Positions 1,196 to 18,011 are shown, numbered from the stretch's first letter. The stretch: DNA of 64,000 nt from Nanobdellota archaeon (GCA_021802505.1 JAJZXE010000003.1:8926-72925), one strand, 5' to 3'. The notes: generated by a model from the sequence alone, not told the origin. Made by a program: numbers and translations.

Positions 1196-1216
1196 ACAGC
1201 CCGTAGTTTCTAAATG

Positions 1217-1227
1217 AATTTATATTA
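1217..1227 (+). promoter_or_regulatory. TATA-like box for the six-gene surface-protein operon
   Basis: AATTTATATTA is centred about 25 nt upstream of ATG 1247. No comparable box occurs at the internal gene junctions. Confidence 0.4.
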
Positions 1228-1246
1228 ACAGAGTATACTTCTTTTT

Positions 1247-3667
1247 ATGCTAACCAGAAAGGCACAGATAGTCATAGGTATAGGAATCATCATCTTATCC
1301 GCGGCTTTTCTCTTAGTGGGTGTTTATTTTGCCAATCTTCAGGGCTTATTCTTCCAGAACGGAGCGAGGTCACTGCAGTTATTTGCGGATAACATAGGTT
1401 TTTCAATAAATTCACTGTACAGTGCACCCTCCTCAATGAGTATAACACTGGCGGGGAACAATTCACTATGCAGCTGGAATCCTTCTATATCGGCCTATAC
1501 ATGTGCGGGAGGATCAAAAGTCTATAATCTTTCGTATGCCAACGGCCCTACATTAGACGCTGGTAAAAATGTTTTCAGCGTAGCATTATGTTTCATGATA
1601 GGATATGGTTTCGGAGGAGTTGGTGGTTCTACCTCCGGTGCAAAAGAAGGCGTCGATGCAGCCACGCAGGTCTCTACAGAGGTTGCAAAGGATACGGAGA
1701 ACACTCTTGTGCAGACGGGTGAGCAGGCCGCACACGAATTACCAGCGACAGCGATTGAAGATACGGGCCAGAGTGCTGGAGAATCTCCAAGTTTATTGAG
1801 CAGACTCGGAACACGCATAAAAAACGGCTTAATAACCAACATAAAACATCCTTTTATACAGGATTTGCCGGAGGATTCTCTTCTCTCGAGCAGTATGTCA
1901 ACCATAAGAGAGGCCTTAAGAACTTCTTCTGCATTTATACCGGTTGCAGTAGCATCAATGTCAGCTGCATTGGTTGCTGTCCCCATCTTTGAATTATGGT
2001 TTGGAACAAGCAGCAGTACACTAAATACGTATGTAACTAAGGGCATATACATAAACGGCCAGCAAATAGGTGCATTAACAGGGCCGTCAGTTTCAATAAG
2101 CCAGCAGATAGCGGCGGCTTATCTAAACCAGGAGCCTCTGCCGTTCAAATATGCAGCGGCGGACTTTGTATTGCAGCAATACTCTCAGTTATTATCCAGC
2201 GAGCAGACTCTGAATTCTTTGCCGCCCGGACTGGGAAAAGATACCCTGTTGTTGTTTACCGCAAAGCAGATCGCGGTGAAACAGAACGTATTATCAGAGT
2301 TGTCAGCAGGCGCTTCGGCTTCAACAAATCCTTATTCAACACCTACTTCTGGCGTTTCATCTCCTGGAGTTTTAAGCTCGCCAAACTCTTTGGTAGGTTC
2401 AGTTCATTTATCAGCAAACGGGGCCGATCCGCTCCTTTCGATACCCTTTTTCCTCGCACAGAATGCATTTCTTGTTTATGCAAGGACCGCTAGCTGTTTA
2501 AGTATACCGTCACAGCCATTAAACGTTAACAGTTATAATTCTGTTGGGAAGGGGGTTTCATCTTTAACCTCTGAATTTGGTGCGGCAACTACTCTGGTAA
2601 ACATATATACCAAAATAAACAGCATTCTGCCGCTCGGAACATATTTTGTAGGCTATGGCGGGGAGGTTTATCTTAACGGTCAGTCGAGCGGAAGGCCGAC
2701 ACAGGTAACAGCTCCACTAATAACAGATATGAATGATATGTGTGAGTTGGCCCAAACTACTTCTGAACCGGGACAGAATCTCAGAACGATTATACAGCCA
2801 AGCGGAAACGGCTCTATCACTTTTTCATTGTCTCAGGGCCTTTACAACACCCTCTGTTCTTCAAATAATGCGCTGTTCCCGCACACCTTGCAGACAGAAT
2901 TAAACGGCCTTTTGAACGCTAATGCAAGTGATAAAAACATGACTGTTCTTCTTCCACCGGGAGATTCGCTTGCAATCTCGAATACCGGTAAAAACATAGA
3001 TTTATGTATTTATAGCATACTGATAGATTCCTTTGGCTCTCCCGTTATATCTGCCGGTAATTTTAACAGCGCTTCATTTAATGCGACTGAGTTCGGTTCA
3101 CCGGTTTCATGCGTAAATCTTACTAATCTTAGTGGCGGAGCGGTAAATATCGGTATAAGTTCCGGTGAATTAACAGCATTAAACAATGACATGCAGAATA
3201 ACCGGGATTTCTACATAAATAACGGGTCTTTGCTTGGTTTCTCGGTTCCTATAACCGATTTCCCAAATCAAATCACCGCAACCAGTCTCTTAGGTACAAA
3301 CAGTTTCTTATCCGCCGGTAACTTTATAGCGGGAGGGCAGCCCGCAATAAGAAAAGACTTGGGCATAAATTTTCCGGTTGCTTCATTGATAGCTTCTATA
3401 ATAGGAAAGAAGATACCTAAATTACAGGCAGGGATATCGACTTCACTGGACAATTTTTTAATAACGCCCTTGTACCAATTGTCTTCCTCTAATACAAATC
3501 TTTCATATTACCAAACGGATTATGCAAACGTTACGATTGAATTCGGAAGGACAACCGCCGGCGGCGTAACAACCTATAATATCAACAAAGTATTCGATAA
3601 CTTGGTGTTTGGAGTGTATCCAAACAATCTAAATTCGTTTGGAGGTACTTACTTTTCAGGGAGTTGA
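1247..3667 (+). CDS. operon gene 1: 806-aa membrane/surface protein with class III (prepilin-like) signal motif
   Basis: N-terminus MLTRKA/QIVIGIGIIILSAAFLLVGVYF. Two more hydrophobic segments flank an acidic loop. The remainder is Ser/Thr/Asn/Gly-rich with few charges. Confidence 0.75.
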   Translation: MLTRKAQIVIGIGIIILSAAFLLVGVYFANLQGLFFQNGARSLQLFADNIGFSINSLYSAPSSMSITLAGNNSLCSWNPSISAYTCAGGSKVYNLSYANGPTLDAGKNVFSVALCFMIGYGFGGVGGSTSGAKEGVDAATQVSTEVAKDTENTLVQTGEQAAHELPATAIEDTGQSAGESPSLLSRLGTRIKNGLITNIKHPFIQDLPEDSLLSSSMSTIREALRTSSAFIPVAVASMSAALVAVPIFELWFGTSSSTLNTYVTKGIYINGQQIGALTGPSVSISQQIAAAYLNQEPLPFKYAAADFVLQQYSQLLSSEQTLNSLPPGLGKDTLLLFTAKQIAVKQNVLSELSAGASASTNPYSTPTSGVSSPGVLSSPNSLVGSVHLSANGADPLLSIPFFLAQNAFLVYARTASCLSIPSQPLNVNSYNSVGKGVSSLTSEFGAATTLVNIYTKINSILPLGTYFVGYGGEVYLNGQSSGRPTQVTAPLITDMNDMCELAQTTSEPGQNLRTIIQPSGNGSITFSLSQGLYNTLCSSNNALFPHTLQTELNGLLNANASDKNMTVLLPPGDSLAISNTGKNIDLCIYSILIDSFGSPVISAGNFNSASFNATEFGSPVSCVNLTNLSGGAVNIGISSGELTALNNDMQNNRDFYINNGSLLGFSVPITDFPNQITATSLLGTNSFLSAGNFIAGGQPAIRKDLGINFPVASLIASIIGKKIPKLQAGISTSLDNFLITPLYQLSSSNTNLSYYQTDYANVTIEFGRTTAGGVTTYNINKVFDNLVFGVYPNNLNSFGGTYFSGS

Positions 3668-3675
3668 AATAGGAC

Positions 3676-4482
3676 ATGGCATTAGTTGAGATGATGGCGT
3701 TTTTGAATGCAGGGATACTGATAGTTGCATTTGCCCTGCTTTTGGTCGTTTTATCATTCAGTGTCTCTCAAATCAACAGTACGAGTGTATTTGCAAATTC
3801 AGAAGCGGTGGCAACAGGTATAGGAACCAGGCTGATAACCTCTCCGAACTGTTTTGCCTACAAAAATACCATTTCATACTATAATTCGAGTCTGGATGCT
3901 CAGGGCGGGCCTCTTTATTCTTCATCATATACGGAACCGGGGGTAATAGATCTTAACAAGTTTATCGAAAATTACTTTCTTTCGTGCATGCAATATATAT
4001 ATTTTGGAGGGTCGACGGATGTCCCGGCTCTTCAGTCCGATTTAACCGCTGCCACAGGCGTTTCATTGACTCTTGCCGACACACAGGATCCGACCGAACT
4101 CGGCCCGACCGGTTCTTTGTATCTTTCCAATTATAATCAGTTTAATTTCGGAGGCAGTTTTCAACAGACAGAGGCGTTGATACAAAAATACGCCCAGACG
4201 GCAGAGTATGCTGCAATGGGCGTAAGCATGGTTACAAGTCTGGCGGTAATGATAGCTACCGGCGGTGCTGTGCAGTTTAATGTAATTTTAGCAGTGGGAC
4301 AGCAGTCCACTACGGAGATAACGCCGCAGTATGCATTGGCCAGCGTATTCTATTCTGAAAACACCTACACAGAATCTTTTCCCGTAGAGATACAGTTTAC
4401 AAACGCGCAGGGCCAGCCTACTTTTCAGAATAGCGGAGTGTTAAAAATTGCGGTAACATATGGAATTCCACCTTACAGCTAG
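3676..4482 (+). CDS. operon gene 2: 268-aa protein with pilin-type N-terminal helix but no leader
   Basis: Starts M-ALVEMMAFLNAGILIVAFALLLVV, resembling the SALEYMMTYGWAILIIV helix of the 26067 gene. It lies 8 nt after gene 1. A second hydrophobic stretch (MGVSMVTSLAVMIATGGAV) lies in the C-terminal third of the protein. Confidence 0.7.
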   Translation: MALVEMMAFLNAGILIVAFALLLVVLSFSVSQINSTSVFANSEAVATGIGTRLITSPNCFAYKNTISYYNSSLDAQGGPLYSSSYTEPGVIDLNKFIENYFLSCMQYIYFGGSTDVPALQSDLTAATGVSLTLADTQDPTELGPTGSLYLSNYNQFNFGGSFQQTEALIQKYAQTAEYAAMGVSMVTSLAVMIATGGAVQFNVILAVGQQSTTEITPQYALASVFYSENTYTESFPVEIQFTNAQGQPTFQNSGVLKIAVTYGIPPYS

Positions 4483-5041
4483 AAATAGAAAGGGCCAGCT
4501 AACGATGTTAGACCTGGTGTTAGCCCCGCTTGCGGCCGTAGTCCTTGCGGTTCTGGCGTCTGCATTGCTGCACAGTGCCACAGCTAATTTATTGACGGCG
4601 GTTAGTCAGCAGCCCGGTTCATTTTCCTGTAATTTTGCCCTGGATTCTCTTTATAGCACTTATTATATTCATACAGCCGCGGCATTATCACAGCTGGCTT
4701 TGTCAAATCCGAGCCAGTACTCGCTGTCAGAATCGACTAAACAGCAGAGTTTATCCGCCAATTGTAGCGGAGCGTGTACTCCTACCTATAGTTATGTACA
4801 GAGCTATCTCTATAATTCTACTTCTCTCTTTTCTGATTTTATAGGTTATTTCTCTGGTTTTTCCTTTAGTAATTTTAAGGTGTTAACCGGCCAGCAGGCC
4901 GCAACTTTAAGCGCACTGGGCATGCAGGTCTATCTGAATCAGATACCTGCAGGGGTCACCGGAACGACGGAATGCAGCATGCAGGTTTATAATCCGGTGG
5001 ATCCTTCAAGACCGTATACTTTATATGGGGTGATGAACTAA
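4460..5041 (+). CDS. operon gene 3: 193-aa class III signal peptide (pilin-like) protein
   Basis: MEFHLTARNRKG/QLTMLDLVLAPLAAVVLAVLASALL. Overlaps gene 2 by 23 nt. Confidence 0.75.
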   Translation: MEFHLTARNRKGQLTMLDLVLAPLAAVVLAVLASALLHSATANLLTAVSQQPGSFSCNFALDSLYSTYYIHTAAALSQLALSNPSQYSLSESTKQQSLSANCSGACTPTYSYVQSYLYNSTSLFSDFIGYFSGFSFSNFKVLTGQQAATLSALGMQVYLNQIPAGVTGTTECSMQVYNPVDPSRPYTLYGVMN

Positions 5042-8000
5042 TGAACAGGAAAGGGCAGGCGAATATGATTGTTGTCCTTGGCATGGTGGCAGCTACAATA
5101 TATATAATGCTAAATGCCTTTGGATATATAAGCAATGTCGGTCTCAGCTCAAAAATAGAGATAACAGCGCAGAACAGCATATACCAGACGCTTGCACTGA
5201 AGGATTATCTTATCCAGGAGGCAAATTACAACTTTCAGAAGGCCCAGCTTTTCGACGGATTAACGCTGAAGCCCAGTTCCGTCGGTTGTGGCTATATCAA
5301 CACCTCGCAGTCCCTTCCCTTTGTACCTCTGCCGAAGGTTTATTACTGGAGGAATCTGGCCGGCCAGATCTGTCTTCCGAATAATAATCTAATAACCTAC
5401 GGTCTGGAAACACTTTTAAACAAGAAATCATTCGACATAATAAACTCCTCAAACATAGACATACAATCGAATCTTGTCCTTAATTTGTCGAATAGAAATG
5501 GAAATGTATGGTATAATAATTTCTCTGCCCCGTTCCTTTCGGGCAAATACACTTTTTTTTACAACGGATCAGCAGCAACGTTTTCGATATGCGAATGGTC
5601 TAACAGCGGCTGCAGTTATGTCCTTAATGATTCTCCGTTGGGTGTGAATTTCAATATCTCAAATCTAGAGTTTACTTCTCTTCCGCTGCAAAATATAGTC
5701 TCCGGAGTTATATCTCAGTCCAGTTCTGTAAGTGCTTTCTTCACAGACTCAAGCGTTTCACCTTCAAGCCAGTATTCCCTGGTGACTTTTCCGGATGGAA
5801 ACGTTGCGATAATATACACAAATACAACAAACGGTGTAGCCAGTTTTTACCTCACGCCGATGCCCAATCAGAATATTTACACCCTGAACGGTGTTATGGC
5901 TTACGACTCTGCAAACGGTATAACTGATAAAATAGAACTTGTCAATAATTCTGCCAGAGGATTTATCTTTGACGGTGTAAATTACACTTTTTCGGTTTCT
6001 TCGGACGTAAACGGAATATTTTCAATAGCTCCGAGCAATTATAAAATGTTCGGGATCCAGCCAAAGTTTGTGTATTATAAATATATATTGAACAGCATAC
6101 AAAATTCCGGCACGCAGAATCTTCTCTTTCCGAACAACCAGAATATTTACGTCTCGTATTCCGTATTTCCTTTATACTCTCCCCAGGTCTGCGTGAATTA
6201 CAATGAGGGACAGTATAACCTGCAGAATTGCATGACGCTGTCCGATTCCATAACAGGTAATAATTACCTGAGCCAGATAATGCAGCTTGGTATTGCTTTC
6301 GTAAATGAGAGTTTTCCGGTTGGAAACCAGAAAATAGAGGGATTTGCACAGTATGAAATTGATAATTACATATCAAATGCCATAAATGCAGTAAACCTAA
6401 AAACAGTTTCGGTAAACGGCAGACCGAAATATGACTGGTATTCAGCGCTAATACTTGCACTGGGTTCGCCGCAGGGTACGAATTATCTGATTGGCAAGCT
6501 GGCAAGGGTAAAAGAACCGTATTACAGTACTTATATATACAATTGTGAGCAGAACGTTTCTGATATACAGTACTGCAGAAGCCTTTTATCTTCTACACTT
6601 TCGCAGGATATTGTTTCGTTACTGCAGCAGCAGATGCCGCAGGAGTTGAGTTTTCTTTCCGGAACCAATTTTAATATAAATGTGTTGAATCTTTCTGTAA
6701 ATGCCAGTGAACTTCATTCCTGCGTCAATGCAAGTAATTACAGTGTAAAATCAAATTATACCTACTCGGTAAAAAGTGTGCCGGTGAGCGGGAACTATTC
6801 GGAAGAGGTGCTTGGTATACCCATTGCTTTGGATTTCGGCTATCAGAACAGCCTTAATTTAGTGCCGACTGAGTCATGCGGCATACAGAAATCGCCGTAT
6901 TCGACCGGCTATCCGGGATTTTCAGAGGCATTGGTAACAAATAATTTTACTTATATAAATTGCGCTCCGGCAATATCACAGGAGTTTTTAAATCATACAT
7001 GCATTGCCAGTTTAGAGACTTCAAACTCAAATGTTGCGGATTATCTTAATTCCAGCAGCTCCGCAGGGCAGGGAGAATACTGCAGGGAGGAAACAAACGG
7101 GGAGTATTTCTGTCCGTATTATAAAATCTCCAGCTTTTCCTATAAGAACTGGCTTACGAGCAGCAACAGCTGCCCGGATTACTTTGTTATAGACAAGGAA
7201 AATTTCACAACCTCTCAGAGCAATAACAATTACAGATTGGTTTCCGTTTATGGCGGCGGTGCAGATTCGGCTAGTTTATCATTTTACAACCGGACATTTG
7301 CGCTGTACAACGGCTCATTAAATCTGCCTGAAAATTTCAGTTTTAACGTGGGTTTCAATTCAAGCGGCCCGTATGCCGGTGTAGATGCATTCTTCTCCGG
7401 TAACTCTCACTTAACCGGCAATGTTATATCCGCTTCATTTAATTCAGTACAGGACCCCATAGGCATATACAATTATTCCGTATCAACGGATTCATTGTCA
7501 TTATTAAGCGGGTCTAATAATTTTCTTTCGCCGGGCGCAGAAAGTGAACTTAGCTTTGACAGGTATTGCACGGTTAAAACAGGCTGCAACCTGACGGCTT
7601 ACCTTAATTCAAACCTGGAAAGTAATTTTTACAGTAATTCAACCGCCGTTAAATCAAACGTTAATCTATTGGGCGTTTCCACCACCTCAAAGTCCTCCTC
7701 TGATATCATAAGTTATGCCTTTGTAAGTAATTATATTCCGGTTTACAAACCGGTTATAAATCAGCTTGCCTACTCATCAGCAGCCCAGCTGAACCCCTCG
7801 CTTAATGCTTCATTCGGACTTACAACGGACAATAATACATATTTCAACGAGTTTTTAATAAATTCATCAAACTTTTCAGATGCATACCAGCTTGCGGTCT
7901 ACTTAAACAGCAATTTCAATTTCGGATATATGCTGCCGGGTTATATAAAAATATTCGGGGTTTACTCCAATAATGCCGTTTCCCAGTTTTATTGGTGGAA

Positions 8001-8466
8001 TCAGACAGATATACAGAATGGAGGTGTAATCTGGGTTAATCTGACAAACAAGGTACCGGCGGAATTATACATAGTTTATGGACAGGGTGCGGTTTATAAC
8101 GGCAAATTCTCGGACAACGGTTCGGAAGTATTTCCGTTTTTCTATTCTGCAAGCGGAGACAACGCCGCTTTCAATTTTCTCTATCCAAATAATGACCAGC
8201 ACAATTTCAATGCATACTACTCTAATGTAGGTTTAAATCTTTCAAACACAGAACCGGTACCGCCGTATATATACAATTCAACCCTAAACTCATATTATGA
8301 GGAGTTCGCGTGCATTAATGTAAATCCGTTCAAACTAACGCTGTTAAATGCCACATATTCCGCTTATCCTCCAAACTTTAATATAAATGAACTGTATAAT
8401 GATTTTAGCACGTTATATCCAAACCTTACTGTAATTGGAAAGAAGACATATGACAGCTGGCCTTAA
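5041..8466 (+). CDS. operon gene 4: 1141-aa class III signal peptide surface protein with C-terminal DUF2341-like module
   Basis: MNRKG/QANMIVVLGMVAATIYIML. TAATG overlap with gene 3. The C-terminal segment FYWWNQ...VIWVNL...LYIVYGQG...VFPFFY parallels the DUF2341 region of the 26067 gene. Confidence 0.8.
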   Translation: MNRKGQANMIVVLGMVAATIYIMLNAFGYISNVGLSSKIEITAQNSIYQTLALKDYLIQEANYNFQKAQLFDGLTLKPSSVGCGYINTSQSLPFVPLPKVYYWRNLAGQICLPNNNLITYGLETLLNKKSFDIINSSNIDIQSNLVLNLSNRNGNVWYNNFSAPFLSGKYTFFYNGSAATFSICEWSNSGCSYVLNDSPLGVNFNISNLEFTSLPLQNIVSGVISQSSSVSAFFTDSSVSPSSQYSLVTFPDGNVAIIYTNTTNGVASFYLTPMPNQNIYTLNGVMAYDSANGITDKIELVNNSARGFIFDGVNYTFSVSSDVNGIFSIAPSNYKMFGIQPKFVYYKYILNSIQNSGTQNLLFPNNQNIYVSYSVFPLYSPQVCVNYNEGQYNLQNCMTLSDSITGNNYLSQIMQLGIAFVNESFPVGNQKIEGFAQYEIDNYISNAINAVNLKTVSVNGRPKYDWYSALILALGSPQGTNYLIGKLARVKEPYYSTYIYNCEQNVSDIQYCRSLLSSTLSQDIVSLLQQQMPQELSFLSGTNFNINVLNLSVNASELHSCVNASNYSVKSNYTYSVKSVPVSGNYSEEVLGIPIALDFGYQNSLNLVPTESCGIQKSPYSTGYPGFSEALVTNNFTYINCAPAISQEFLNHTCIASLETSNSNVADYLNSSSSAGQGEYCREETNGEYFCPYYKISSFSYKNWLTSSNSCPDYFVIDKENFTTSQSNNNYRLVSVYGGGADSASLSFYNRTFALYNGSLNLPENFSFNVGFNSSGPYAGVDAFFSGNSHLTGNVISASFNSVQDPIGIYNYSVSTDSLSLLSGSNNFLSPGAESELSFDRYCTVKTGCNLTAYLNSNLESNFYSNSTAVKSNVNLLGVSTTSKSSSDIISYAFVSNYIPVYKPVINQLAYSSAAQLNPSLNASFGLTTDNNTYFNEFLINSSNFSDAYQLAVYLNSNFNFGYMLPGYIKIFGVYSNNAVSQFYWWNQTDIQNGGVIWVNLTNKVPAELYIVYGQGAVYNGKFSDNGSEVFPFFYSASGDNAAFNFLYPNNDQHNFNAYYSNVGLNLSNTEPVPPYIYNSTLNSYYEEFACINVNPFKLTLLNATYSAYPPNFNINELYNDFSTLYPNLTVIGKKTYDSWP

Positions 8467-8467
8467 T

Positions 8468-11400
8468 ATGGAAGAACGCAGTAGAAAAATAGCAGAGATC
8501 GGACTTGTTTTATTGATATTTCTGCTTTCTTTTTTAATCGTAAATAAGAGCACCCAGATCTTTAGAGGCAGTACTACAAATAATGCATCGTCCGCTGCGT
8601 TTGTGGCTGCAAATGCGTCAGGTATTAACAGTTTTTCGATTCCGTTTGCTTCAGGATCTTCTTCCAGTCTTGTAACAAAGAATGAATTTTTAAACACTTC
8701 CTCAAATTCGCAGTATTACAGTAATATCTTCTTTAATGAGAAATTTTATCCTGGGAATGTTTCATCAAATTCAAATACTTATTCATGTTCTGCAGTCAAT
8801 ACAATCATTGCACCACACTTATGTTTTAGTTTTGCCACTCTTTTTTCATGTGGAGGTGGGCCGACCACCGCTGATTTCAGCAATTTGGTCGGATACATAG
8901 GTTTTCCGCAGCAAGATAATAATTTTCCCAATAATGGTGGCACAAATTATTCAAATCTTTATTCGGCTGTAAGCAACGGCAGCTCCCAAAATGTTTATCA
9001 ACTGCCATCCTCTACCTTTGAATATCAGAATTTCATAAACTGGAGTGCGTCTTCAATTCGTTCATACGGTTTTAGTTCTTCGAATGGAAACCCTTATCTT
9101 TATGCAATAAACCACTCTTTTACGGGTTATCCTACTCTTTCCGGCAGCATCCCTAGCAGCACTCTTATAATACCGGCGGTGTCCTGCGGTTCAACTTTTA
9201 TAAATAACTACATAAATTATCCTGGATTTATCGGTACTCTTTATAATATATCCACTCTAAGCGGTTTTACTCCCTCGGTTTATTTAGCTTCAAAGGATGA
9301 AAACGGATTCGGCGCTTATTATGCTTTCGGCTATCTCTTATCATTAGGTAACCTACCCTGGACAGGCAGTTTTAATTCGCTCCTTGCTTACCAGATACAG
9401 TCGATAAATCCTGCGTTTAGTTATACGATGCCGACGGAGGACTATGCCGAATTTCCAAAAGGAAACAGAGGAGATATGCAGTATGTAAATTCCTCGAATG
9501 AGTTCCTCACGCCCTTACAGATGTCGTACTATGAAAGTGGAAATACCTCAAACGTTTCTATATATGTTTCCAATACGAGTATCTCATCCATAGCGGAGGT
9601 TTCTTCCACAAGCCAGGTGTGCAGCAGGTTCGGGCCGCATGGCGTGTGTAATAGCTATACACCGGAGGTAAAAACTGCCAACAGCGCCGATACATTTACT
9701 GATCCAAATCTGGAGGGTGTTTATTATCCGAATTATGCAAACGGAATTTATGTTCAGTTTAGGACGGACGGCATATTTCCGATATGCGCCTGGAATTCCA
9801 CCACTTCAAACACTTTAAGCAGCTGTACTTTTGAAAAACCTTCCACGATAAACAACATCTCTTATCAAAGACTCTGGCTTTCAAATAATATAAAGAATAA
9901 CCAGCTTTACAATTCCAATTTTGCGCCGGGTCAATCCTCTTCTCCTGAAAATAGTTTTACCCTGACAGCTTTGGATAGTTTCTGTTTTTATGGGGAAAAT
10001 TTCAATACGGCAAACGGCGTTTATACCTCGCCGAGTTATTCCAGAATAATACCCCCGACTTCCACTGAGAATTATACCTCCGCGATAGGAACCTGCAATG
10101 CGTTCTTCAACAGTACTAACTGTTTCAGCGGCCGTGCAAGCCAGTACCTTAACTTTCAGGACGGAATATTTGCAAATAATATTGCATGTACATCAACAGG
10201 AATACATGCAAAGAATGTCACCGATGCGTGGATAAGATCCATATACGTTGCGAACAATGCGGGGGATTTCTGCGGAGATTTCCTGGGTCAGAAAAATCCT
10301 TCAGATCCCCAGGCAAATTCTACCGTGTTTCTTCAAACATTGAACAATAACTGCCCGTCGTTTAATTCGAATTCTTCATCGGTTAATCTGGTTATAACCG
10401 TGAAGAACGTAGGAAATACCCAAATAACAAATCCATACCTTGTCGCTTTATACGGAAACAACAATTTAAGCAATATATTTTATAACTCCCAGAACAGTCA
10501 GCATGTAACCTACTTATTATATCAGGATTTTCTATCTTCGATGAAGGCAACGACCGGAATCATACAGGTTGATTACAACAACAATTTTGATACCAATATG
10601 TATGTTTTTGATGCCGGCCATCCGTTGAATCCGATACCGATTGAATCACTGTTTTCATCGGGCCAACAGTACGAAAACGGGCCTTTCAATAATTCTCTTT
10701 TAGGGATGTGGATATATTCCAATGGCGCGCCTAATAATGTGATAAGAACTTCCAATACTATACTCTCGCATTCCACGGCCGGAACATCCGCTGTCCCGGT
10801 TATACAGCCAAACGGAACCGCAACATTTACCCTAGAAGTTCCGATGTCTTTATTTAAGGCACTGCTGTCCGGTAAATACAATCTAAGTGTTTTCTTTGGT
10901 AATACCTTCAATGTCACATGGAATACGCTCTCAAGCACTTCTCCACAGACGGCACTTTCCAATCCCGGAACTCCTGTTACTGTTAATCCGTTGGTTTCAT
11001 CCTCCGATACAAATGCTTCGCAGACCCATAATAACGAGATAATAACCGGTGGAAAAGGTGCTCCCTCACCCTTATGGCAGTACATCGTAAGCTACGATTT
11101 CAATTTTTCCAAAGCGCCTTTCAATCGCATAAGCATATACAATGACAACCTCTCTATAAACGTTTCGTCGGTTAATTCAACTTCTAGTGCATTGAATGTA
11201 ACTGTAAACCCTTCCGTCTCTGTTCTGAACGGAAGCGGTTCCTATAAGCTTGGATTAAACCAGCTTAAAGGGTCAGCAATATCCTGTTTTGCCTCTCCTG
11301 ACAACGTACAGGACTTCGGAGTATTCTGGTCAAAGCAGATAGTCTCCCCATCGAATCTTAATTACGCCCTGTCAAATAGCATCTATTCCGATAACCAGCA

Positions 11401-14400
11401 GCAGGCAAGCAATGTACTCATAACCAGCTGGAGAGGGATACTGTTTATGCCCTATTCGGATCAAGTCGCATTAAACTATAATAACCTGCCGCATTACTAT
11501 CCTGCTACTTCCTCTTTCCAGATAGAAACTCCTACGCTTAATTCTACGTCCAAGAATTTCAATTATGAGGCATTTGATTACTTTGGAAGCGGTACCGGAG
11601 GAGGTTTATTTTCCAATTTATCTGACTTGTACGGTTCTCTAAACTCCTCGGTTACCTCTTTTCCGGTAAGCCTTCCAAACAGTTCATTGACATTCCATCT
11701 TACTTCCAACTCGCTCGTAAGTGATCCGTCAATTTTAAGAATAGTGGGAACGGATCTTTTAGTTAACTATTCGGTTTTTTCAAATAGATCATTTACATTC
11801 TCTCTGGTTACTAAAGGTTCAGTACAGTGCACATACAGCGAAAGTACCTCGTCCAACGGTACTTTTGAATACGGTTCAGGAGGGTCCTCCTGCTTAAACA
11901 GTGCGGTCATAAACAGTTCTTACATCAATATATCCTCAAAATACGGGCCGTTCTTTGCTGACATGTACAATAATTCAAATCTGAACATGTCAAATGAGAC
12001 GGCAGGCGGAACAGTTCTTATGGCTGGAAATGAAACCTTGTCGAAACAGAATAAGGGCGGTTTGTTTACCATAACTTTACCGATAAATACGAGCACAAAC
12101 AACGGAATAGCACTGGTATTTTCGGTGGTTCCATTAACACGGCAGCTTTATAACTCCGATGTTTACCTTTACAATCTAAACGGCACGCCTTTCAACTGCA
12201 ACATACTCAATGATTTCAACAATACCGGGAATCTCGGCGTTTCTCAGATAGGCAGGGGAAAGTATTTCCTTCCAAACGGCACGATGATGTGCAATCTTAC
12301 GGGTGATTTCACCTATCTGAGGGCAGTTTTTATAAATCGTTCAAACAATGCCTATCTTGGCAGCGGAGACATACAATCCGGGGTAGTAATCTCAAATATC
12401 AGCGGTTCCTCGGCAAAAGACGAGCTAAATATAAGCATAAACGGGATTCCGGTAAATGCGCAAAACGCGAACATATTGCCAGGAAAGTACTCCTCCTGCA
12501 GTTTAACCGATAAAACCATCTATAACGGCATATTAAGGTACCCTACCGGCTGTGATAACCTTTCGTATTCCCTAATAACTTTTGATTATAATGTTAACGG
12601 GAGCATACTGCCGGAATCCGCCTTAATCTCTCCGAAAAATTATTACAGGCATTATCCTCAATTTTTATATTCCGGTCCATCAGTTGTATCGACCAATCCA
12701 ACGGCCGAATATAATCTTACGCTGCCGGCGAGCAGCGCAGAGAATGTACCCATACAATTTAGCATTCCCAATAATTTCGGAGGCTGCAATAATATTATAC
12801 TGACCACTCAGAATCCTTATCCATATGCCGAGGTTCCTTATCAGGTCATTTTATCCGGTTCGCAGTCCTGTGATTATGTTTTCGTCGGGTCCGGAGGAAA
12901 CAGTTATTCTGTATTCGTGAGCAGTTCTCCTGCAGTCGGTTATCCAGACAATTGGATGAGCTATAACGCTACGCAGTACAATGTTCAATTGTCAACATCC
13001 CTCTTCAATGGGGATCTTATAAGCAATTGCCGGTCCGGCTTCGGTCCGTGCCTGGATTCCTTTTCAGTCAATGGAAAAGACCTCGGGAGCCTTCTTTTCA
13101 ACAACGTTTCAACGTCCTCCGCTACCATCTCTCAATCACTCAAAGGCCCGGTTGAGGACTGTTTCACTGTAAGTTATTCATCCTCGCAAACCGTTGAATT
13201 TCCTGAAACCGGTTTCGGAGGTATAAATTATGCAAATAACAAGATATACCAGACAGCCGCTCCTTCCCAATCCATAGCCAGTGATTATTGTTTCTATGCG
13301 GGTTCTCCGGTAATAACCGACTCTATTACGGCGAGGGGCTCTCCTATAACGTTTAAGGTCCAAAACCAGCTTATATCCAATTTTTCATACCTGAAAAACA
13401 GCAATCTGAAGAGCTTTTACGTGCCTGCCGCAATAAATGTAGGTTATTCATCGTACGGCAGTGTGAATGTCAGCACGAGTAAACAGATATACTACAATAT
13501 CAGCAGTGCAGATTTACTTACAAAGTGCATAAATTACACGATATCTGGCGCAAATGCGAGTGCTCTGGGTATAAATCAGATTACTCCCATAAATATAAAT
13601 TCAAATGATATACTGACCAACGAGCAGCTTTACTGTTTATATGGCGGCAGTCCATCCTATACCACGCAGCTTCCGTTAAGCGGCACAAACAATGCAAATT
13701 CATCAACTTCAGTCGGCTTTGCTTATCAGCCTGGGAATTACACGGCAGGAACCGGGACATTATATGATTCATGCATCATCCCGCCAAAACTTAAGGTGTC
13801 TTCTCCAGCTGTTTTTTATCTGAATGGAAAAGCTTCCGACTATAATCCTTCAAACAGCGGCGAAAACTATACTGCCAGCCACTCTGCAAATTCAAGCGGT
13901 CTCGAGATGCTTTACAGCCCGGGTTCCAGCGTGTTTATAAACAAGTGCGCTCCCAATAGTACAATCTTAAGTTACAGCGCATGTACAAAGCCTGTGAATA
14001 TTGTGCCTCAGAACGGATCCTACAACAGCTTGGAGGCATTGCCGACCGGAAGTAATGGGAATCTCTCTTTTGGAGGCGGTTGTTTTATAGGCAGTATAGG
14101 AACCACAAATTACAAATGTGCACCGACAGATGGCGAGCTATCCTTCTCGAATACCACGGGAAAAAGTTCTTCCTCTACATCGGTTTCAATTTCACAGGTC
14201 ATATTAAATTCTACGTCGGCTCCAACAACTTCATTTTCTGTTTCGTTTGATTGCAGTGTATCCGCCAGTAACAGCACAGTTACCAAGCTGTTTTCGTGCA
14301 GCTACCCAAATTCGCAGACATCCGGTGCGTGTTCTGCGAGTGTTTCTTATAAGCAGATAAACTCCACCGCCTACAATATAATTTCTACCTGTTCGGTTTC

Positions 14401-17400
14401 TTCAGTAAAAGGCTTTACCGTCAAGGCAGATACAGTAAAAATAAGCAAGCTTAGTATAACAGGCGGACAGTCCGAGACAACAGGTTTAATATCCGATTTT
14501 ATATGCGGCAATACGACGAATGTGATAAGCAAAAACATTCCTAACGGCTGGAACTGGAAGCCTTACTCCACTGCCGGTGCTATAAATCCCGCTCCGAGTA
14601 CGAACAAGGCAGGGGTTGCGGAAGTCGGCGGTTGTGAAGCCGGAAGGGACACATTTGAGACACAACAACCAACTATTTCAATAACAACACCCAGTAGTAA
14701 TACTTTTCAATATAGTTACTCCTGCCAAAGCGGTTACTCCGGCACAATAACGGCATGCAGTCAGCCGACTTCCCTTCCTCAGTCAAAGCTAGAATTCTCT
14801 TCAAATAACAAGTGTGGTATTGCAAATATAACACTTATAAATACTACTTTTCAATCCAGTTCTGTAAACGGGAAAAATAACGGCGGCGAAGCTACAAGCT
14901 GTAATCCTTTCAGCAAATCCGGTTTTTCACAGCCGACAGTACAGGATAACTGCATAGCTTACCATAACCCTGCTTTCAATTCAACCACCGCTTCCTATGA
15001 ACTTCAATATGCGAATTCAAGCGGTTACGGCATAGGCATGGGGGTACTCGGCGGAAGTTATAACTTAAATATTTCGATTCCAAACAATAAACAGCAGAAC
15101 TCTGTAAAAGATGCATATCTGACAGGTTTATCGGAATCACAGATTGAAAGCGGCAATAACATTTTGACAGACTTACTTCCAACTTCTCTGCTGGAGTCGA
15201 ACCTTCCGAGCAAGGCCTTATCCATATCAGCTGCATACTCCTATGACATGCTTAATATACTCATGCTTCAGAATCCCTCGTTGGGCGTGACCGGCATACC
15301 TGGTTTTATAAACGGCAGTATACTGGATTATGCGCTAAGTATATTTACGGGAGGAACCTCCGGAAATTGTGCTCCGCCGTACAATGTAAGCGGTGACGGC
15401 ATATTTAAATTGGGGGAGGGAGAACTGTGTTCTGGTAAAACACTTCCATCAAGTTACAAGGAGGGCGTTTTTCTCTCTCTGGGAACTCTGAACGAAGGAC
15501 TGCATTCCCTGCAGTTTTACAGCATAGGTAACTCTACAAACGAAGCGCAGCCGTCCGTAAACGTCTTCGACAGTGTGGGAAACGCCGTGAACCTAAACAG
15601 CGCGTGTTCAAACGGCAACAAGAGAGTATTCACCTCTGTTTATAAAGGCGGGACGTGGAGTTTTAATATGACTTCGGATCAGCAGTGCAACCCTGTAAAC
15701 AATAAATTATACGGTTATATTGTCAATTGCCTTTATCAAACGCCGGGCAATTCCACTTATACAATAACTTCTCAGTACTATCTTGCGTATAACCTCCCGA
15801 CAATCTGGAATATAAGCTATACTCTCTTGGTTTCTCCAAAGAGCTATGAAGTCGTGCCTGCTCCAGTCTATCAGATAAACTACTCAACAGGTTCTATATT
15901 GACGCTGCAGCAGCCCAATAAGACGGTGTTTATAGAGAAAGGATTACCGGCAGGATACAGATGGACCGTTGATTATAACGGTGTAAGCAGAAACTCCATT
16001 TCAAATGAAATTTACTTTTACTCGGTTGGAACACATTCATTTACGGTTCCCGTACTGCAGAATTCGTCCATAACACCGGATTGTTATACAAGATACACCC
16101 CTGCTCCGGGTGCCGGCCAGGCAACTTCAGGCACTACAACCTATATACAATTTTCTTCCAATACAACCTGCTATAGTTACTTTACAGAGAGCGGTTTGCC
16201 ATCTGGGTTTAACTGGAATGTAACTTATGACGGAGTTACAAAAGTTTCCGGGTCAAGCAACATAGAATTTATAACTATAAATCCGGGAGGTTACGGCGGC
16301 AACTTTTCTTATTCCGTTCCGGATATCAAAACTACCTCAGCCGCCTGCACTGAAATTTACATTCCTTCGCCGTCTTCTGGTTATTTAGCGGCTGGAACAA
16401 ATCAGAGCGTTGTATTTACCTTAACTTCGGATACCTGTATAACTACATTTGATGAAAATGGTCTGCCTAGTGGCCATGCCTGGACTGTAGACTACAATGG
16501 CACTACTGAAACTTCGTCTACTGACAAAATAACATTTACCTCTGCCCCGGGCACGCCGTCTTATTCTGTATCCGCGCCTTCTAATTCATCAGCGACTTTG
16601 GATTGCACCACTTATTACTTCCCGTCGCCTTCTTCAGGACATTTAACTGCCGGAACATCTCTATCCATATCATTTTCATCTAAAACGCATTGTACCACAA
16701 CATTCACTGAAACAGGCCTGCCGTCTAATGTCAAATGGTACACAACTTATGATAAAGATACTAGCAGTGCCCAGTCTCCGAATAAAATAGTATTTTCAAA
16801 GAATACGACTGGTACTGCAATTCCTTCATATTCTTATTCTGTGCAGAAATTGACGGCTTCTTCAAGTTCATTGGACTGTTCAACCACTTACACCCCTTCG
16901 CCATCCTCCAGCAGTTCACTTAATGCCGGATCCAGCATTAAAATAACATTTACGACATCTACATCCTGCGTAACTACTTTCAAGGATTCAGAACTGAACT
17001 CAGGTTATAATTGGGCAGTATACGGTGGCTCTCAGTCATCAAGCGGCTCGACAAGCAGTAATCTCCAGCTAACTACTTCTAGCGGGACATATTCTTATTC
17101 TGCATCTATAACTACAAACGGTATAGACTGTTATTCCTCAGGATCGTTTTCGGCAGGCTCTACCATCACTCCGAGTTTTACCTGTCAAACAGAATTCTAT
17201 GTAAGTCAGTATCATTCTGTGGATTCCGGCGCAACATGGTCAGTTAGCTATAATGGGAGTTCGGAATCGCAGCCTAGCCCCAATGACAATATCTTCTTTT
17301 ATGAATCTTCAAACAGTTCATTAAAGATACCGTTCACTGCAGGTTTCAGTGTAAGTAACATAGGCACCTGGACAGAGTATCCACACCCTGGTTCTGGCAG

Positions 17401-17446
17401 TTTAATAAGCGGAGGCACGCAGGCAATCTGGTATGGTTATTCGTAA
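8468..17446 (+). CDS. operon gene 5: giant N-terminally anchored Ser/Asn/Thr-rich surface protein (about 2992 aa from ATG 8468; 3003 aa from TTG 8435)
   Basis: Uninterrupted 9 kb ORF. N-terminus MEERSRKIAEIGLVLLIFLLSFLIV, with the ATG 1 nt after the gene 4 stop. Dense N-x-S/T sequons, many Cys, very few K/R/D/E. A CARDB-like stretch (VITVKNVGNTQITNPYLVALYG). Six C-terminal tandem repeats. Confidence 0.85.
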   Translation: MEERSRKIAEIGLVLLIFLLSFLIVNKSTQIFRGSTTNNASSAAFVAANASGINSFSIPFASGSSSSLVTKNEFLNTSSNSQYYSNIFFNEKFYPGNVSSNSNTYSCSAVNTIIAPHLCFSFATLFSCGGGPTTADFSNLVGYIGFPQQDNNFPNNGGTNYSNLYSAVSNGSSQNVYQLPSSTFEYQNFINWSASSIRSYGFSSSNGNPYLYAINHSFTGYPTLSGSIPSSTLIIPAVSCGSTFINNYINYPGFIGTLYNISTLSGFTPSVYLASKDENGFGAYYAFGYLLSLGNLPWTGSFNSLLAYQIQSINPAFSYTMPTEDYAEFPKGNRGDMQYVNSSNEFLTPLQMSYYESGNTSNVSIYVSNTSISSIAEVSSTSQVCSRFGPHGVCNSYTPEVKTANSADTFTDPNLEGVYYPNYANGIYVQFRTDGIFPICAWNSTTSNTLSSCTFEKPSTINNISYQRLWLSNNIKNNQLYNSNFAPGQSSSPENSFTLTALDSFCFYGENFNTANGVYTSPSYSRIIPPTSTENYTSAIGTCNAFFNSTNCFSGRASQYLNFQDGIFANNIACTSTGIHAKNVTDAWIRSIYVANNAGDFCGDFLGQKNPSDPQANSTVFLQTLNNNCPSFNSNSSSVNLVITVKNVGNTQITNPYLVALYGNNNLSNIFYNSQNSQHVTYLLYQDFLSSMKATTGIIQVDYNNNFDTNMYVFDAGHPLNPIPIESLFSSGQQYENGPFNNSLLGMWIYSNGAPNNVIRTSNTILSHSTAGTSAVPVIQPNGTATFTLEVPMSLFKALLSGKYNLSVFFGNTFNVTWNTLSSTSPQTALSNPGTPVTVNPLVSSSDTNASQTHNNEIITGGKGAPSPLWQYIVSYDFNFSKAPFNRISIYNDNLSINVSSVNSTSSALNVTVNPSVSVLNGSGSYKLGLNQLKGSAISCFASPDNVQDFGVFWSKQIVSPSNLNYALSNSIYSDNQQQASNVLITSWRGILFMPYSDQVALNYNNLPHYYPATSSFQIETPTLNSTSKNFNYEAFDYFGSGTGGGLFSNLSDLYGSLNSSVTSFPVSLPNSSLTFHLTSNSLVSDPSILRIVGTDLLVNYSVFSNRSFTFSLVTKGSVQCTYSESTSSNGTFEYGSGGSSCLNSAVINSSYINISSKYGPFFADMYNNSNLNMSNETAGGTVLMAGNETLSKQNKGGLFTITLPINTSTNNGIALVFSVVPLTRQLYNSDVYLYNLNGTPFNCNILNDFNNTGNLGVSQIGRGKYFLPNGTMMCNLTGDFTYLRAVFINRSNNAYLGSGDIQSGVVISNISGSSAKDELNISINGIPVNAQNANILPGKYSSCSLTDKTIYNGILRYPTGCDNLSYSLITFDYNVNGSILPESALISPKNYYRHYPQFLYSGPSVVSTNPTAEYNLTLPASSAENVPIQFSIPNNFGGCNNIILTTQNPYPYAEVPYQVILSGSQSCDYVFVGSGGNSYSVFVSSSPAVGYPDNWMSYNATQYNVQLSTSLFNGDLISNCRSGFGPCLDSFSVNGKDLGSLLFNNVSTSSATISQSLKGPVEDCFTVSYSSSQTVEFPETGFGGINYANNKIYQTAAPSQSIASDYCFYAGSPVITDSITARGSPITFKVQNQLISNFSYLKNSNLKSFYVPAAINVGYSSYGSVNVSTSKQIYYNISSADLLTKCINYTISGANASALGINQITPININSNDILTNEQLYCLYGGSPSYTTQLPLSGTNNANSSTSVGFAYQPGNYTAGTGTLYDSCIIPPKLKVSSPAVFYLNGKASDYNPSNSGENYTASHSANSSGLEMLYSPGSSVFINKCAPNSTILSYSACTKPVNIVPQNGSYNSLEALPTGSNGNLSFGGGCFIGSIGTTNYKCAPTDGELSFSNTTGKSSSSTSVSISQVILNSTSAPTTSFSVSFDCSVSASNSTVTKLFSCSYPNSQTSGACSASVSYKQINSTAYNIISTCSVSSVKGFTVKADTVKISKLSITGGQSETTGLISDFICGNTTNVISKNIPNGWNWKPYSTAGAINPAPSTNKAGVAEVGGCEAGRDTFETQQPTISITTPSSNTFQYSYSCQSGYSGTITACSQPTSLPQSKLEFSSNNKCGIANITLINTTFQSSSVNGKNNGGEATSCNPFSKSGFSQPTVQDNCIAYHNPAFNSTTASYELQYANSSGYGIGMGVLGGSYNLNISIPNNKQQNSVKDAYLTGLSESQIESGNNILTDLLPTSLLESNLPSKALSISAAYSYDMLNILMLQNPSLGVTGIPGFINGSILDYALSIFTGGTSGNCAPPYNVSGDGIFKLGEGELCSGKTLPSSYKEGVFLSLGTLNEGLHSLQFYSIGNSTNEAQPSVNVFDSVGNAVNLNSACSNGNKRVFTSVYKGGTWSFNMTSDQQCNPVNNKLYGYIVNCLYQTPGNSTYTITSQYYLAYNLPTIWNISYTLLVSPKSYEVVPAPVYQINYSTGSILTLQQPNKTVFIEKGLPAGYRWTVDYNGVSRNSISNEIYFYSVGTHSFTVPVLQNSSITPDCYTRYTPAPGAGQATSGTTTYIQFSSNTTCYSYFTESGLPSGFNWNVTYDGVTKVSGSSNIEFITINPGGYGGNFSYSVPDIKTTSAACTEIYIPSPSSGYLAAGTNQSVVFTLTSDTCITTFDENGLPSGHAWTVDYNGTTETSSTDKITFTSAPGTPSYSVSAPSNSSATLDCTTYYFPSPSSGHLTAGTSLSISFSSKTHCTTTFTETGLPSNVKWYTTYDKDTSSAQSPNKIVFSKNTTGTAIPSYSYSVQKLTASSSSLDCSTTYTPSPSSSSSLNAGSSIKITFTTSTSCVTTFKDSELNSGYNWAVYGGSQSSSGSTSSNLQLTTSSGTYSYSASITTNGIDCYSSGSFSAGSTITPSFTCQTEFYVSQYHSVDSGATWSVSYNGSSESQPSPNDNIFFYESSNSSLKIPFTAGFSVSNIGTWTEYPHPGSGSLISGGTQAIWYGYS
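15923..17446 (+). repeat. six tandem protein-level repeats (about 75-90 aa each) at the C-terminus of the giant protein
   Basis: Repeat heads are FIEKGLPAGYRWTVDYNG, YFTESGLPSGFNWNVTYDG, TFDENGLPSGHAWTVDYNG, TFTETGLPSNVKWYTTYDK, TFKDSELNSGYNWAVYGG and EFYVSQ..GATWSVSYNG. They start near 15929, 16178, 16444, 16699, 16972 and 17190. Confidence 0.8.
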
Positions 17447-18011
17447 ATCTGTGATATTTTTAATAGTTGTAGTTTTGATAGCAGCGGTGCTTTTTATAGT
17501 GCTTAAAACTCAGGTTTTTGCACAAAGCAAGTTTAAAGTGTTCAATCTAAATAATGTTTATTTTTCCTACCCCAAAAACTGGTCTATTGTCTCCTATCAT
17601 TATAATGCAACTTCCAAGTTGACCTTTAATGCCCTGCTGCTTCCGACTAATCTGGTCAGTACCTTGTCATATCCTAATGGCTCAATTAGATCACTGCCAA
17701 ATACAACGAATTTCTCAGAGATTTCAATAATTATATTAAAGAACAAATCTCTTTCAGAGTTATATCCCCTGTACATTTTTAATTATACTTACTTGGTGAA
17801 TAATACTGTTCTAGACGGTTATAGGGGAGCAGCGGCTGTTGAAGAAATAAATGCATCCAGCCTTTTGCCGAAAAGCGAAGCTATCTCTTATATCTCAAGC
17901 GGCGGCGGTTATGGTTATTCAGTGGGGGCATTCTTAACATTAGGTTTCAATAAAAGTACATACGGAGCGCTTACCGAAATTATAAAAACTTTTAAGTACC
18001 CACTATCTTAA
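17433..18011 (+). CDS. operon gene 6: 192-aa N-terminally anchored or secreted protein
   Basis: MVIRKSVIFLIVVVLIAAVLFIVLKTQVFAQS. Overlaps the giant gene by 14 nt. Confidence 0.65.
   Translation: MVIRKSVIFLIVVVLIAAVLFIVLKTQVFAQSKFKVFNLNNVYFSYPKNWSIVSYHYNATSKLTFNALLLPTNLVSTLSYPNGSIRSLPNTTNFSEISIIILKNKSLSELYPLYIFNYTYLVNNTVLDGYRGAAAVEEINASSLLPKSEAISYISSGGGYGYSVGAFLTLGFNKSTYGALTEIIKTFKYPLS

Follow-up and report, generated by a model that had tools for sequence, protein, structure and literature searches.

The 64,000-nt stretch of DNA analyzed here (the window; Nanobdellota archaeon, GCA_021802505.1, JAJZXE010000003.1:8926-72925) contains a cluster of six tightly coupled genes, g1 to g6, for surface proteins. 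Exact-sequence matches were found in Candidatus Parvarchaeota metagenome-assembled genomes (MAGs; ARMAN-type DPANN archaea from acid mine drainage), every one of them annotated as ‘hypothetical protein’, and the source genus is Candidatus Parvarchaeum (ARMAN-4/5 type). On balance, we favor the view that g1 to g5 represent the distal (accessory) module, comprising minor pilins and adhesins, of a DPANN type IV filament system, and that this module is detached from the rest of the system in Candidatus Parvarchaeum. The module is regarded as a detached part of a pilus because relatives carry its homologues as the last genes of operons for an ATPase, TadC and pilins, and because the genus is reported to encode the machinery without recognised pilins. 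An earlier interpretation of the window (the sequence-only reading) had proposed a stand-alone, undescribed appendage without assembly genes. This has to give way to a type IV filament operon whose distal part is detached here, while its central idea, in which minor-pilin-like subunits and large adhesins are encoded at a distance from the machinery, remains the best reading in the light of the relatives' operons and the published machinery. Since a homologous module stands at the end of a DPANN type IV pilus operon, the cluster is also the leading present candidate for a structure by which Parvarchaeum attaches to other cells. Its elements are located as follows.

1217-1227 (+): TATA-like box AATTTATATTA, seen in the sequence about 25 nt upstream of the g1 ATG
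1247-3667 (+): g1, open reading frame (ORF) of 806 amino acids (aa)
3676-4482 (+): g2, ORF of 268 aa, starting 8 nt after g1
4460-5041 (+): g3, ORF of 193 aa, overlapping g2 by 23 nt
5041-8466 (+): g4, ORF of 1141 aa, joined to g3 by a TAATG overlap
8468-17446 (+): g5, ORF of 2992 aa, 1 nt after g4
15920-17437 (+): six tandem repeats of about 85 aa within g5 (aa 2485-2990), found with an iterated hidden Markov model (HMM; E 1e-20 to 1e-36 per copy)
17433-18011 (+): g6, ORF of 192 aa, overlapping g5 by 14 nt

The sizes and junctions previously given for these six same-strand ORFs are exact in coordinates and spacings. Alternative starts of g5 are an ATG at 8450 (2998 aa) and a TTG at 8435 (3003 aa), the latter changing the junction with g4 to -32. 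The TATA-like box that had been pointed out in front of the cluster is indeed present, and an A/T-rich box (GATAAATATC / GATATATATTAA) is found at equal distance from g1 in 13 orthologous Parvarchaeum loci. It is the probable promoter of the unit, as judged from its sequence and position, and its distance of about 25 nt from the g1 ATG implies that the mRNA is leaderless or has a very short leader.

The gene neighborhoods of related DPANN archaea (loci are referred to by L numbers) connect the module with pilus genes. A g2 profile built from 32 sequences and searched against 1.84 billion representative proteins yielded 18 matches only. In the distant g2 relatives, R..[ST]S..[ND]C[FL]A[YF] and PG[VI][VI]D..K recur as invariant motifs, and the richness of these proteins in charged residues indicates that they come from non-acidophiles. 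A concatenated g2+g3 query returned g2 homologues alone. With HMMs, homologues were detected for g1 (in L027, L038, L040 and L048), g3 (in L027 and L039) and g4 (in L027 and L039, E = 8e-39, and in L040, E = 3e-16). The module of L027 and L028 encodes proteins of 637-645, 267, 145 (MKKG/AITF), 723 (MRKG/QVNIV) and at least 2108 aa, where the slash marks the presumed cleavage position. Tandem short canonical pilins (MMNKKA/QEMSIQTVVV in three copies; LNKKA/QGLPIYAVVV) stand immediately before the module in L029 and L046; an exact-DNA scan for the sequence upstream of L029 gave nothing. The gene order in L040 is a TadC-like protein, three membrane proteins, five short pilins (MKA/QGLPINTIV and others), two further proteins, and then the module with g1' (HMM E = 2e-23), g2' (6e-31), g3', g4' and a giant ORF of at least 2180 aa. 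A 6.5-kb stretch of L040 that seemed free of ORFs was considered as an rRNA operon, for which Rfam gave nothing; it is the giant ORF running off the end of the locus. The assignment of the L040 protein as TadC is made because members of its DPANN-wide family are annotated as PF00482 (three of them) and because a T2SSE gene is adjacent: in L047, from a strain 95% identical to L040, the gene immediately upstream encodes a 785-aa T2SSE ATPase (PF00437). All elements stand on one contig and one strand in L048, an NCBI ‘Ca. Parvarchaeota’ MAG, where T2SSE and TadC are followed by about ten class III (prepilin-type) proteins, three of them QGLPINTIV pilins of about 155 aa, and then by g1' to g4'. 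Here both g1' (MKKG/VLLP; E = 1.9e-5) and g2' (MKA/QFEAEY; TTG start; E = 4.4e-5) contain the family motifs, and g3' and g4' begin with MKKG/AMSLL and NRIA/QVDIIM. The association of the module with a T2SSE ATPase and TadC/FlaJ is thus observed in the relatives (L048 on a single contig, L047 and L040 jointly) and not in the window. Another Parvarchaeota genome, L049, has an ATPase-TadC pair alone amid housekeeping genes, which would mirror the detached arrangement that we infer for the window organism.

As the sequence-only reading had stated, family scans detect no pilus ATPase, platform protein or peptidase within the 64-kb window, and the 10 kb upstream of it in the same genome, with IMPDH, a permease, the Lhr helicase and the CCA-adding enzyme, contain no pilus genes either. 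The machinery is nonetheless reported for the genus: the published gene counts for ARMAN-4/5 are one for the FlaK peptidase (K07991), one for the arCOG01818 ATPase and one or two for arCOG01812 TadC (PMC10134863 Table S6). Other Parvarchaeota present the same pattern, except that the count of arCOG01812 TadC is 0 in one MAG, and PilA-family pilins number 0 in all Parvarchaeota, ARMAN-4/5 included, apart from one MAG (arCOG02420 = 1; PMC10134863 Table S6). The window itself contains one prepilin of a known type.

26067-27479 (+): 470-aa DUF2341 (PilY1-type) protein (Pfam, E = 4.9e-9) whose translation begins with the class III signal MRLTHKS/QSALEYMMTYGWAILIIV

This signal is a DUF361/EppA-type motif. 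The gene stands by itself, flanked by genes for AAA_14/DUF4143 ATPases at 24616-25899 and 28194-29447, a context that is the same in all strains, and similarity of its product to g1-g5 is not detectable. To judge from its signal and domain, it is probably a further substrate of the same pilus machinery, and as a DUF2341 prepilin with Gln at position +1 it shows that the organism uses Q(+1) prepilin signals. Together with the published inventory, this means that the organism is equipped with the machinery and with Q(+1) signals, but has no annotated substrates. The cluster, which occupies about 1.7% of an approximately 1-Mb genome, would supply the pilin-type substrates that are missing beside the ATPase, platform and peptidase of the genus.

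We analyzed the N-termini with a FlaFind-style scan that covered all 1388 start variants (40 aa or longer) from the six frames of the window. Among these, the class III motif followed by a hydrophobic stretch was found in g1 and g3 only, plus one spurious antisense ORF, and a relaxed motif, [KR][GAS]Q, adds g4. Since the scan picks essentially cluster genes only, the motif is concentrated here far beyond chance. The strict rule is satisfied by g3 (RKG/QLTMLD) and g1 (RKA/QIVIG), and g4 (RKG/QANMIVV) deviates from it at position +3 only. The leaderless g2 and the ordinary signal-anchors of g5 and g6 do not follow the class III rule, so that, of the six pilin-signal or N-terminally anchored proteins originally proposed, only g1, g3 and g4 have class III-like signals. 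The individual N-termini that had been quoted are correct and are kept across species.

The best canonical prepilin candidate of the cluster, judged by its sequence, is g3. Its N-terminus reads MEFHLTARNRKG/QLTMLDLVLAPLAAVVLAVL, with the consensus [KR][KR]G/Q[LVI]T[MIV]LD; G(-1), Q(+1), D(+6), P(+11) and four Cys are invariant, the first three of these at identities down to 51%. The orthologue in ARMAN-4 is BJBARM4_0018. For g4 (MNRKG/QANMIVVLGMVAATIYIML; consensus [KR]G/QAN[MI]I), 12 sequences with overall identities down to 20% all have G(-1), Q(+1) and N(+3). With its 40 N-glycosylation sequons and many invariant Cys, g4 is a candidate giant modular pilin-like protein that may act as an adhesin or tip subunit. 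The N-terminus of g1, MLTRKA/QIVIGIGIIILSAAFLLVG, conforms to the consensus [KRN][AST]/Q[IV]VIGI, in which the Gln is conserved. Transmembrane (TM)-like segments cover residues 4-35, 109-127 and 226-253 of g1; a conserved N-domain bearing Cys and Trp, a charged and variable stretch at about aa 128-225 between hydrophobic segments, and a big C-terminal part rich in Ser, Thr and Asn make it a putative large pilin-like or modular membrane glycoprotein. No leader is present in g2: an in-frame stop lies 2 codons before the ATG, and the hydrophobic helix starts at once (MALVEMMAFLNAGILIV; consensus MAL[VTM]EMMAF). Two Cys are invariant in this protein, and a second hydrophobic helix, likewise conserved, covers about aa 177-208. 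Among its distant relatives, some have leaders (MKA/QLEP, MKKA/QDIF, MKKG/QVQIES, KKS/QMEIT and KKA/QMEIT) and others, like Parvarchaeum g2, begin where a mature protein would begin (MAEIEI, MPELEV). The g2 family thus forms a gradient from leader-bearing (KK[GAS]/Q or MKA/Q) to leaderless members. The proposed link to type IV pilins is in this way borne out from several sides: by the invariant G(-1)/Q(+1) in g3 and g4, the leaders in distant g2 relatives, the ATPase-TadC-pilin operons of related archaea and the machinery in ARMAN-4/5.

An N-terminal signal-anchor without a class III site is present in g5, which has 99 sequons and 60 Cys. Its leader is basic and variable and is followed by a hydrophobic helix without a G/A site; in most orthologues a Glu lies 4 residues past the last basic residue. 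The look of an N-terminal signal-anchor is also seen in g6, which has 10 sequons. The six tandem repeats at the distal end of g5 follow the motif F.E.GLPSG..W.V.Y.G...I.F...Y.Y.V...C..Y.PSP.SG.L.AG. All six proteins are rich in sequons (3.3-5.2 per 100 residues in g4, g5 and g6) and poor in charged residues. Their K/R/D/E content of 6.7-11.5% compares with 22-31% for the cytoplasmic proteins of the window, which makes the earlier description ‘nearly devoid of K/R/D/E’ an overstatement.

The conservation of synteny that had been suggested as a check is extensive. Synteny of g1-g5 extends over 17 loci of distinct Parvarchaeum species (ARMAN-4 and ARMAN-5 among them), and the genes are present, in single copy, in every genome sampled. 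They are also found in more divergent lineages: divergent Parvarchaeota, with 48-64% identity in g2, retain the five genes amid different flanking genes. Within the genus, identities to the window amount to 83-90% for g2, which is the best conserved protein of the cluster, 71-82% for g3, 73-81% for g4, 67-76% for g1 and 64-70% for g5. The same genome pairs gave 78-86% for Lhr, 78-87% for the metallo-beta-lactamase-fold protein, 75-78% for adk and 60-66% for the CCA enzyme. As the g1-g5 identities are like those of Lhr, adk and the CCA enzyme, these surface proteins are constrained as much as housekeeping enzymes. The best-conserved part of both g1 and g4 is formed by the first 100 residues (90-92%). 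The profile of g5 runs from 36% in the first 100 aa through 58-89% in the body (87-89% at residues 2200-2500) to 28-40%, with indels, in the last 300 aa or so. The position of g6 is occupied by an anchored ORF of 188-214 aa in most Parvarchaeum loci, with two unrelated sequence types, and is empty in L016; by its sequence, g6 is therefore a conserved slot with fast turnover that lies outside the conserved core. A giant gene is present at the g5 position in L022-L027, L035, L036 and L040.

Several side observations concern the large proteins of these other loci. The giant of L023 has faint matches to YncE/lactonase beta-propellers, and that of L027 has internal hydrophobic segments at about aa 1528-1630. 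Cys is extremely abundant in the large downstream proteins of the non-acidophilic relatives (149 residues in 2108 aa in L027, 5926-12249; 61 in 611 aa in L029, 14627-19790), and these proteins have Sec-type signals. The g4-like protein of L040 (11439-13913, 824 aa) matches Dockerin_1 over residues 132-198 near the threshold (E = 1.2e-4, 22.6 bits vs a cutoff of 22.9), a dockerin type I/EF-hand similarity that hints at a Ca-dependent interaction module.

If g1-g5 are indeed such a pilus module, a FlaK-type peptidase would cut g3, g4 and probably g1 before the Gln. The four N-terminal helices of g1 to g4 may then co-assemble on the TadC/ATPase platform in the manner of bacterial minor pilins and, by the same analogy, yield a priming or tip complex or a short pseudopilus. 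Such a complex would show the large glycosylated bodies of g1 and g4 and hold or present the giant g5, with g2 as a leaderless pilin-like partner, g5 as a very large N-terminally anchored adhesin-like protein and g6 as a possible variable accessory protein. The distal hypervariable repeats of g5 presumably face the ligand, and they would touch a partner surface, most plausibly that of Thermoplasmatales host cells or of the biofilm matrix. A bolder version of this proposal, possible yet doubtful, is a Parvarchaeales-specific host-recognition organelle, in which a machinery-built stalk of giant modular pilins (806 and 1141 aa) and the ‘pre-processed’ leaderless g2 would bear the approximately 3000-aa g5, whose distal repeats would set the Thermoplasmatales host range. 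If true, it would open a first molecular approach to what makes DPANN archaea host-specific in acid mine drainage.

A number of observations speak against the assignment of g1-g5 to a type IV filament. The residue at position -1 of g1 varies among orthologues (A/S/T), and g5 and g6 have no class III signal. The two additional hydrophobic segments and the charged loop of g1 in this genus, like the second hydrophobic helix of g2, are awkward for subunits that have to leave the membrane; the extra TM segments of g1 are missing in distant homologues. Conservation at the level of housekeeping genes is atypical of adhesins, and a major pilin candidate is absent from the window. The T2SSF match behind the TadC call in L040 (E = 0.003) lies below the Pfam threshold. 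A published study by cryo-electron tomography describes no ARMAN-made pili (PMC4110969), and expression or processing data for g1-g6 were not found in the literature. Lastly, there is no sequence or profile similarity of g1-g6 to any known pilin, PilY1/DUF2341 or other adhesin family, g1-g4 have no mutual similarity (BLAST, HMM, hhalign), and the models of g2 and g3, with low scores from predicted local distance difference tests (pLDDT), leave a pilin fold unconfirmed.

The searches behind the last of these points were as follows. At E ≤ 0.1, g1-g6 gave zero matches in Pfam and NCBIfam, and nothing usable was obtained from PHROGs. Membership in the known pilin families (PF04021/DUF361, arCOG PilA) was accordingly not found at this threshold, and none of the families suggested beforehand (PF04021, DUF361, DUF2341, CARDB) matched g1-g6 in Pfam. 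Sub-threshold matches of g3 to hemicentin, LIFR and lactococcin were discarded as noise. The profiles of g1, g2 and g4 and the g5 sequence had no match in the PDB. A DUF2341 domain is present neither in g4 nor in g5 of the window; for the divergent orthologues, the only Pfam match was a sub-threshold DUF2341 (E = 0.007) in g4 of L022. By eye, the C-terminus of g4 resembled DUF2341, but comparing it with the genuine DUF2341 protein (26067-27479) by HMM or BLAST gave no support for this. Paralogy within g1-g5 was likewise rejected, none being detectable by BLAST, HMM or hhalign. AlphaFold2 modeled g2 (32 sequences) as a helix of 54 residues (2-55), strands, a second long helix (160-194) and two C-terminal strands, with low scores (mean pLDDT 61, predicted template modeling score 0.48), and Foldseek of this model against the PDB gave no match with E < 1. 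The AlphaFold2 result for g3, a mostly helical fold, is unreliable (pLDDT 64 for one model and about 40 for four).

Some of the same observations could be explained by a different final structure. The g1-g6 proteins might be the permanent scaffold of the two-layered ARMAN wall of about 30 nm, in which the pilin-type N-termini only insert and bundle the proteins (a bindosome-like or pseudopilus-anchored layer), g5 spans the wall and neither a pilus nor adhesion is involved. We think this unlikely, but it would account for a single-copy cluster that is present in every genome sampled and conserved at the housekeeping level, and for six sequon-rich, charge-poor surface proteins, and the extra hydrophobic segments of g1 and g2 would suit stable residence in the membrane. 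The N-terminally anchored g5 is long enough for tens of nanometres, and cryo-electron tomography showed a wall of about 30 nm with inner and outer layers, ‘no S-layer’, densities of 5-8 nm near the inner membrane and no ARMAN pili (PMC4110969). A surface-layer (S-layer) gene is otherwise not known for Parvarchaeota. However, the hypervariable distal repeats of g5 resemble an interaction surface, and no sequence similarity to S-layer families was found in Pfam, NCBIfam or the PDB. In the relatives, moreover, the module is the tail of an operon with short canonical pilins, an ATPase and TadC, which favors a filament over a wall. The wall scaffold would share a pilus-type biogenesis step with the filament module that we prefer, so that only the final structure differs.

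It is improbable that g1-g6 are ordinary Sec-dependent surface glycoproteins whose N-termini merely resemble class III signals and which have no tie to pilus machinery. The generic signal-anchors of g5 and g6, the Sec-like signals of the giant and some downstream proteins in relatives, the lack of a pilin family match and the position -1 of g1, which is not strictly G/A, would agree with this idea. Yet the residues G(-1)/Q(+1)/N(+3) of g4 and G(-1)/Q(+1)/D(+6) of g3 are invariant at 20% and 51% identity, respectively, which is not expected of generic signal peptides. Sec-dependent export alone also sits badly with the specificity of the class III motif for cluster genes within the window, with the gradient from leader-bearing to leaderless proteins in the g2 family, and with the repeated position of the module beside pilins, ATPase and TadC in relatives.

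Type IV filament systems include secretion and DNA-uptake machines. The most improbable and wholly speculative explanation is an intercellular conduit or uptake device, in which the module builds or gates ‘synapse-like’ bridges between ARMAN and Thermoplasmatales, with a polytopic g1 and the motor as a piston in the style of type II secretion or a competence pilus: bridges and filamentous connections across the ARMAN wall seen by cryo-electron tomography (PMC4110969), the putative extra TM segments and charged, possibly cytoplasmic loop of g1, and the reduced, host-dependent genomes would fit it, but those segments are missing from distant g1 homologues, Pfam and NCBIfam revealed no channel, nuclease or transporter domains, and many of the published connections are ascribed to the Thermoplasmatales partner (PMC4110969).

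When compared with known systems, the cluster fits none of these families by sequence or domain content. It is reminiscent of the bacterial minor-pilin/PilY1 tip (Pseudomonas aeruginosa FimU-PilVWXE with PilY1; GspH-I-J-K of type II secretion), where an operon also encodes pilin-like proteins with conserved N-helices together with a very large non-pilin, the ATPase and platform are possibly encoded elsewhere, and priming and adhesin display are the presumed roles. In contrast to that system, with which there is no sequence or profile similarity, g1-g5 include ‘pilins’ of 806 and 1141 aa, a leaderless g2, an N-anchored giant of 2992 aa and the archaeal Q(+1) signal, in an archaeal envelope. The Epd pili of Methanococcus maripaludis and other archaeal type IV filament loci, whose minor pilins are processed by EppA/FlaK and which encode large DUF2341 or adhesin-like proteins (PMC4858521; bioRxiv 10.64898/2026.04.22.720090), have in common with the cluster the Gln at +1 past a short basic leader. 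Large adhesin-like proteins have been noted in recent surveys of archaeal type IV filament loci, and the combination of accessory pilins and large adhesin-like proteins with an ATPase and TadC/FlaJ is as in L040, L047 and L048; a DUF2341 prepilin is present in the window as well. In Parvarchaeum, by contrast, the module lies apart from the machinery, and g1-g4 lack the DUF361 ‘QxSxEY’ motif and DUF2341. The g1-g4 families are confined to Parvarchaeales-related DPANN archaea (18 representatives for g2) and are unmentioned in PMC4858521 and bioRxiv 10.64898/2026.04.22.720090. The modular pilins PilB and PilC of Streptococcus sanguinis (PMC8179133, PMC9934059) likewise combine a class III signal and pilin helix with a grafted large module, the pilin being the adhesin. 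They are, however, far smaller and have recognisable vWA or lectin modules, whereas no known fold or family can be discerned in the modules of g1 and g4, whose pilin core is only putative. The Sulfolobus bindosome (Bas), with class III signals on sugar-binding proteins, exemplifies large non-filament surface proteins with prepilin-type signals and so bears on the wall scaffold; unlike its components, g1-g6 have no solute-binding-protein domain (Pfam, NCBIfam), and Bas homologues were not detected.

Loci of DPANN ‘dark matter’ with FlaI/TadC and unannotated signal-peptide proteins have been described in general terms as pilus systems (PMC6393860, Fig. 2A). The literature examined, this paper included, does not describe the g1-g5 module or its detached position in ARMAN, nor the leaderless g2 family or the giant g5, and we found in it no mention of the ARMAN-4 loci BJBARM4_0016-0021. 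In ultrasmall Saccharibacteria, which are episymbionts of the Candidate Phyla Radiation, type IV pili mediate host binding (PMC9894109), and we propose that the Parvarchaeum module may be their functional analogue. Little is known of the molecules by which DPANN archaea find their hosts and keep hold of them, and ARMAN/Parvarchaeota have been without a culture and without any candidate protein. The cleavage sites of g3 and g4, the body of g5 and its distal repeats now offer targets for metaproteomics, antibody labeling in cryo-electron tomography and comparisons of host range. If the filament module is real, it would widen the type IV filament repertoire by a family that extends from leader-bearing to leaderless members (g2) and by pilin-like proteins of 800-1100 aa, and it would represent one long pilus operon split into machinery and accessory loci.

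The borders of the unit were examined on both sides. Downstream, the adk gene begins with an ATG at 18013, 1 nt past g6, and is preceded by a box of its own.

17977-17989 (+): TATA-like box AAATTATAAAAAC for adk (box at 17980-17987), within the g6 3' end and about 29 nt before the adk ATG

Co-transcription of adk with the cluster was rejected in view of this box and of a spacing to the cluster that differs in other species, and adk is probably driven by its own promoter. Upstream, a 234-aa ORF (491-1195) was considered as a seventh member and rejected: it is rich in charged residues, and it lies outside the unit since it is inverted (L025) or missing (L024) in divergent lineages. A scan for sigma-70 promoters and intrinsic terminators was uninformative for an archaeon, with counts equal to the shuffled expectation. 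Antisense ORFs of 170-180 aa are found at 1522-2052, 5963-6505 and 10573-11085 (-) inside g1, g4 and g5, and a small antisense ORF at 4956-5180 passes the class III motif scan. All of these are most likely artefacts of the compositional bias of the sense genes.

The remainder of the window is of a housekeeping nature, with LonB, RIO kinase, RtcB with an intein, MMPL, Rad50/Mre11, TyrRS, RNA polymerase subunits, ribosomal protein S7 and TnpB. A tRNA-Met gene (18524-18595, +) overlaps the 5' end of the longest ORF for a Holliday-junction-resolvase-related endonuclease (PF10107; 18557-19042, +); the gene calls of sister strains give 138 aa, so that the true start would lie downstream of the tRNA. 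The RtcB tRNA ligase gene (32399-35392, -; 997 aa) is interrupted by an intein (Intein_splicing, residues ~125-612) and has an archease gene immediately downstream. At 40370-40491 (+), Rfam predicts a 122-nt tRNA (46 bits) that is missed by ARAGORN and is probably an intron-containing archaeal tRNA. An unusually long protein of 534 aa with two ThyX (Thy1) domain stretches is encoded at 42605-44209 (+), beside genes for dCTP deaminase and uracil-DNA glycosylase, and an IS605-family OrfB/TnpB gene (Cas12f-like TNB domain) is located at the end of the window (62368-63600, +).

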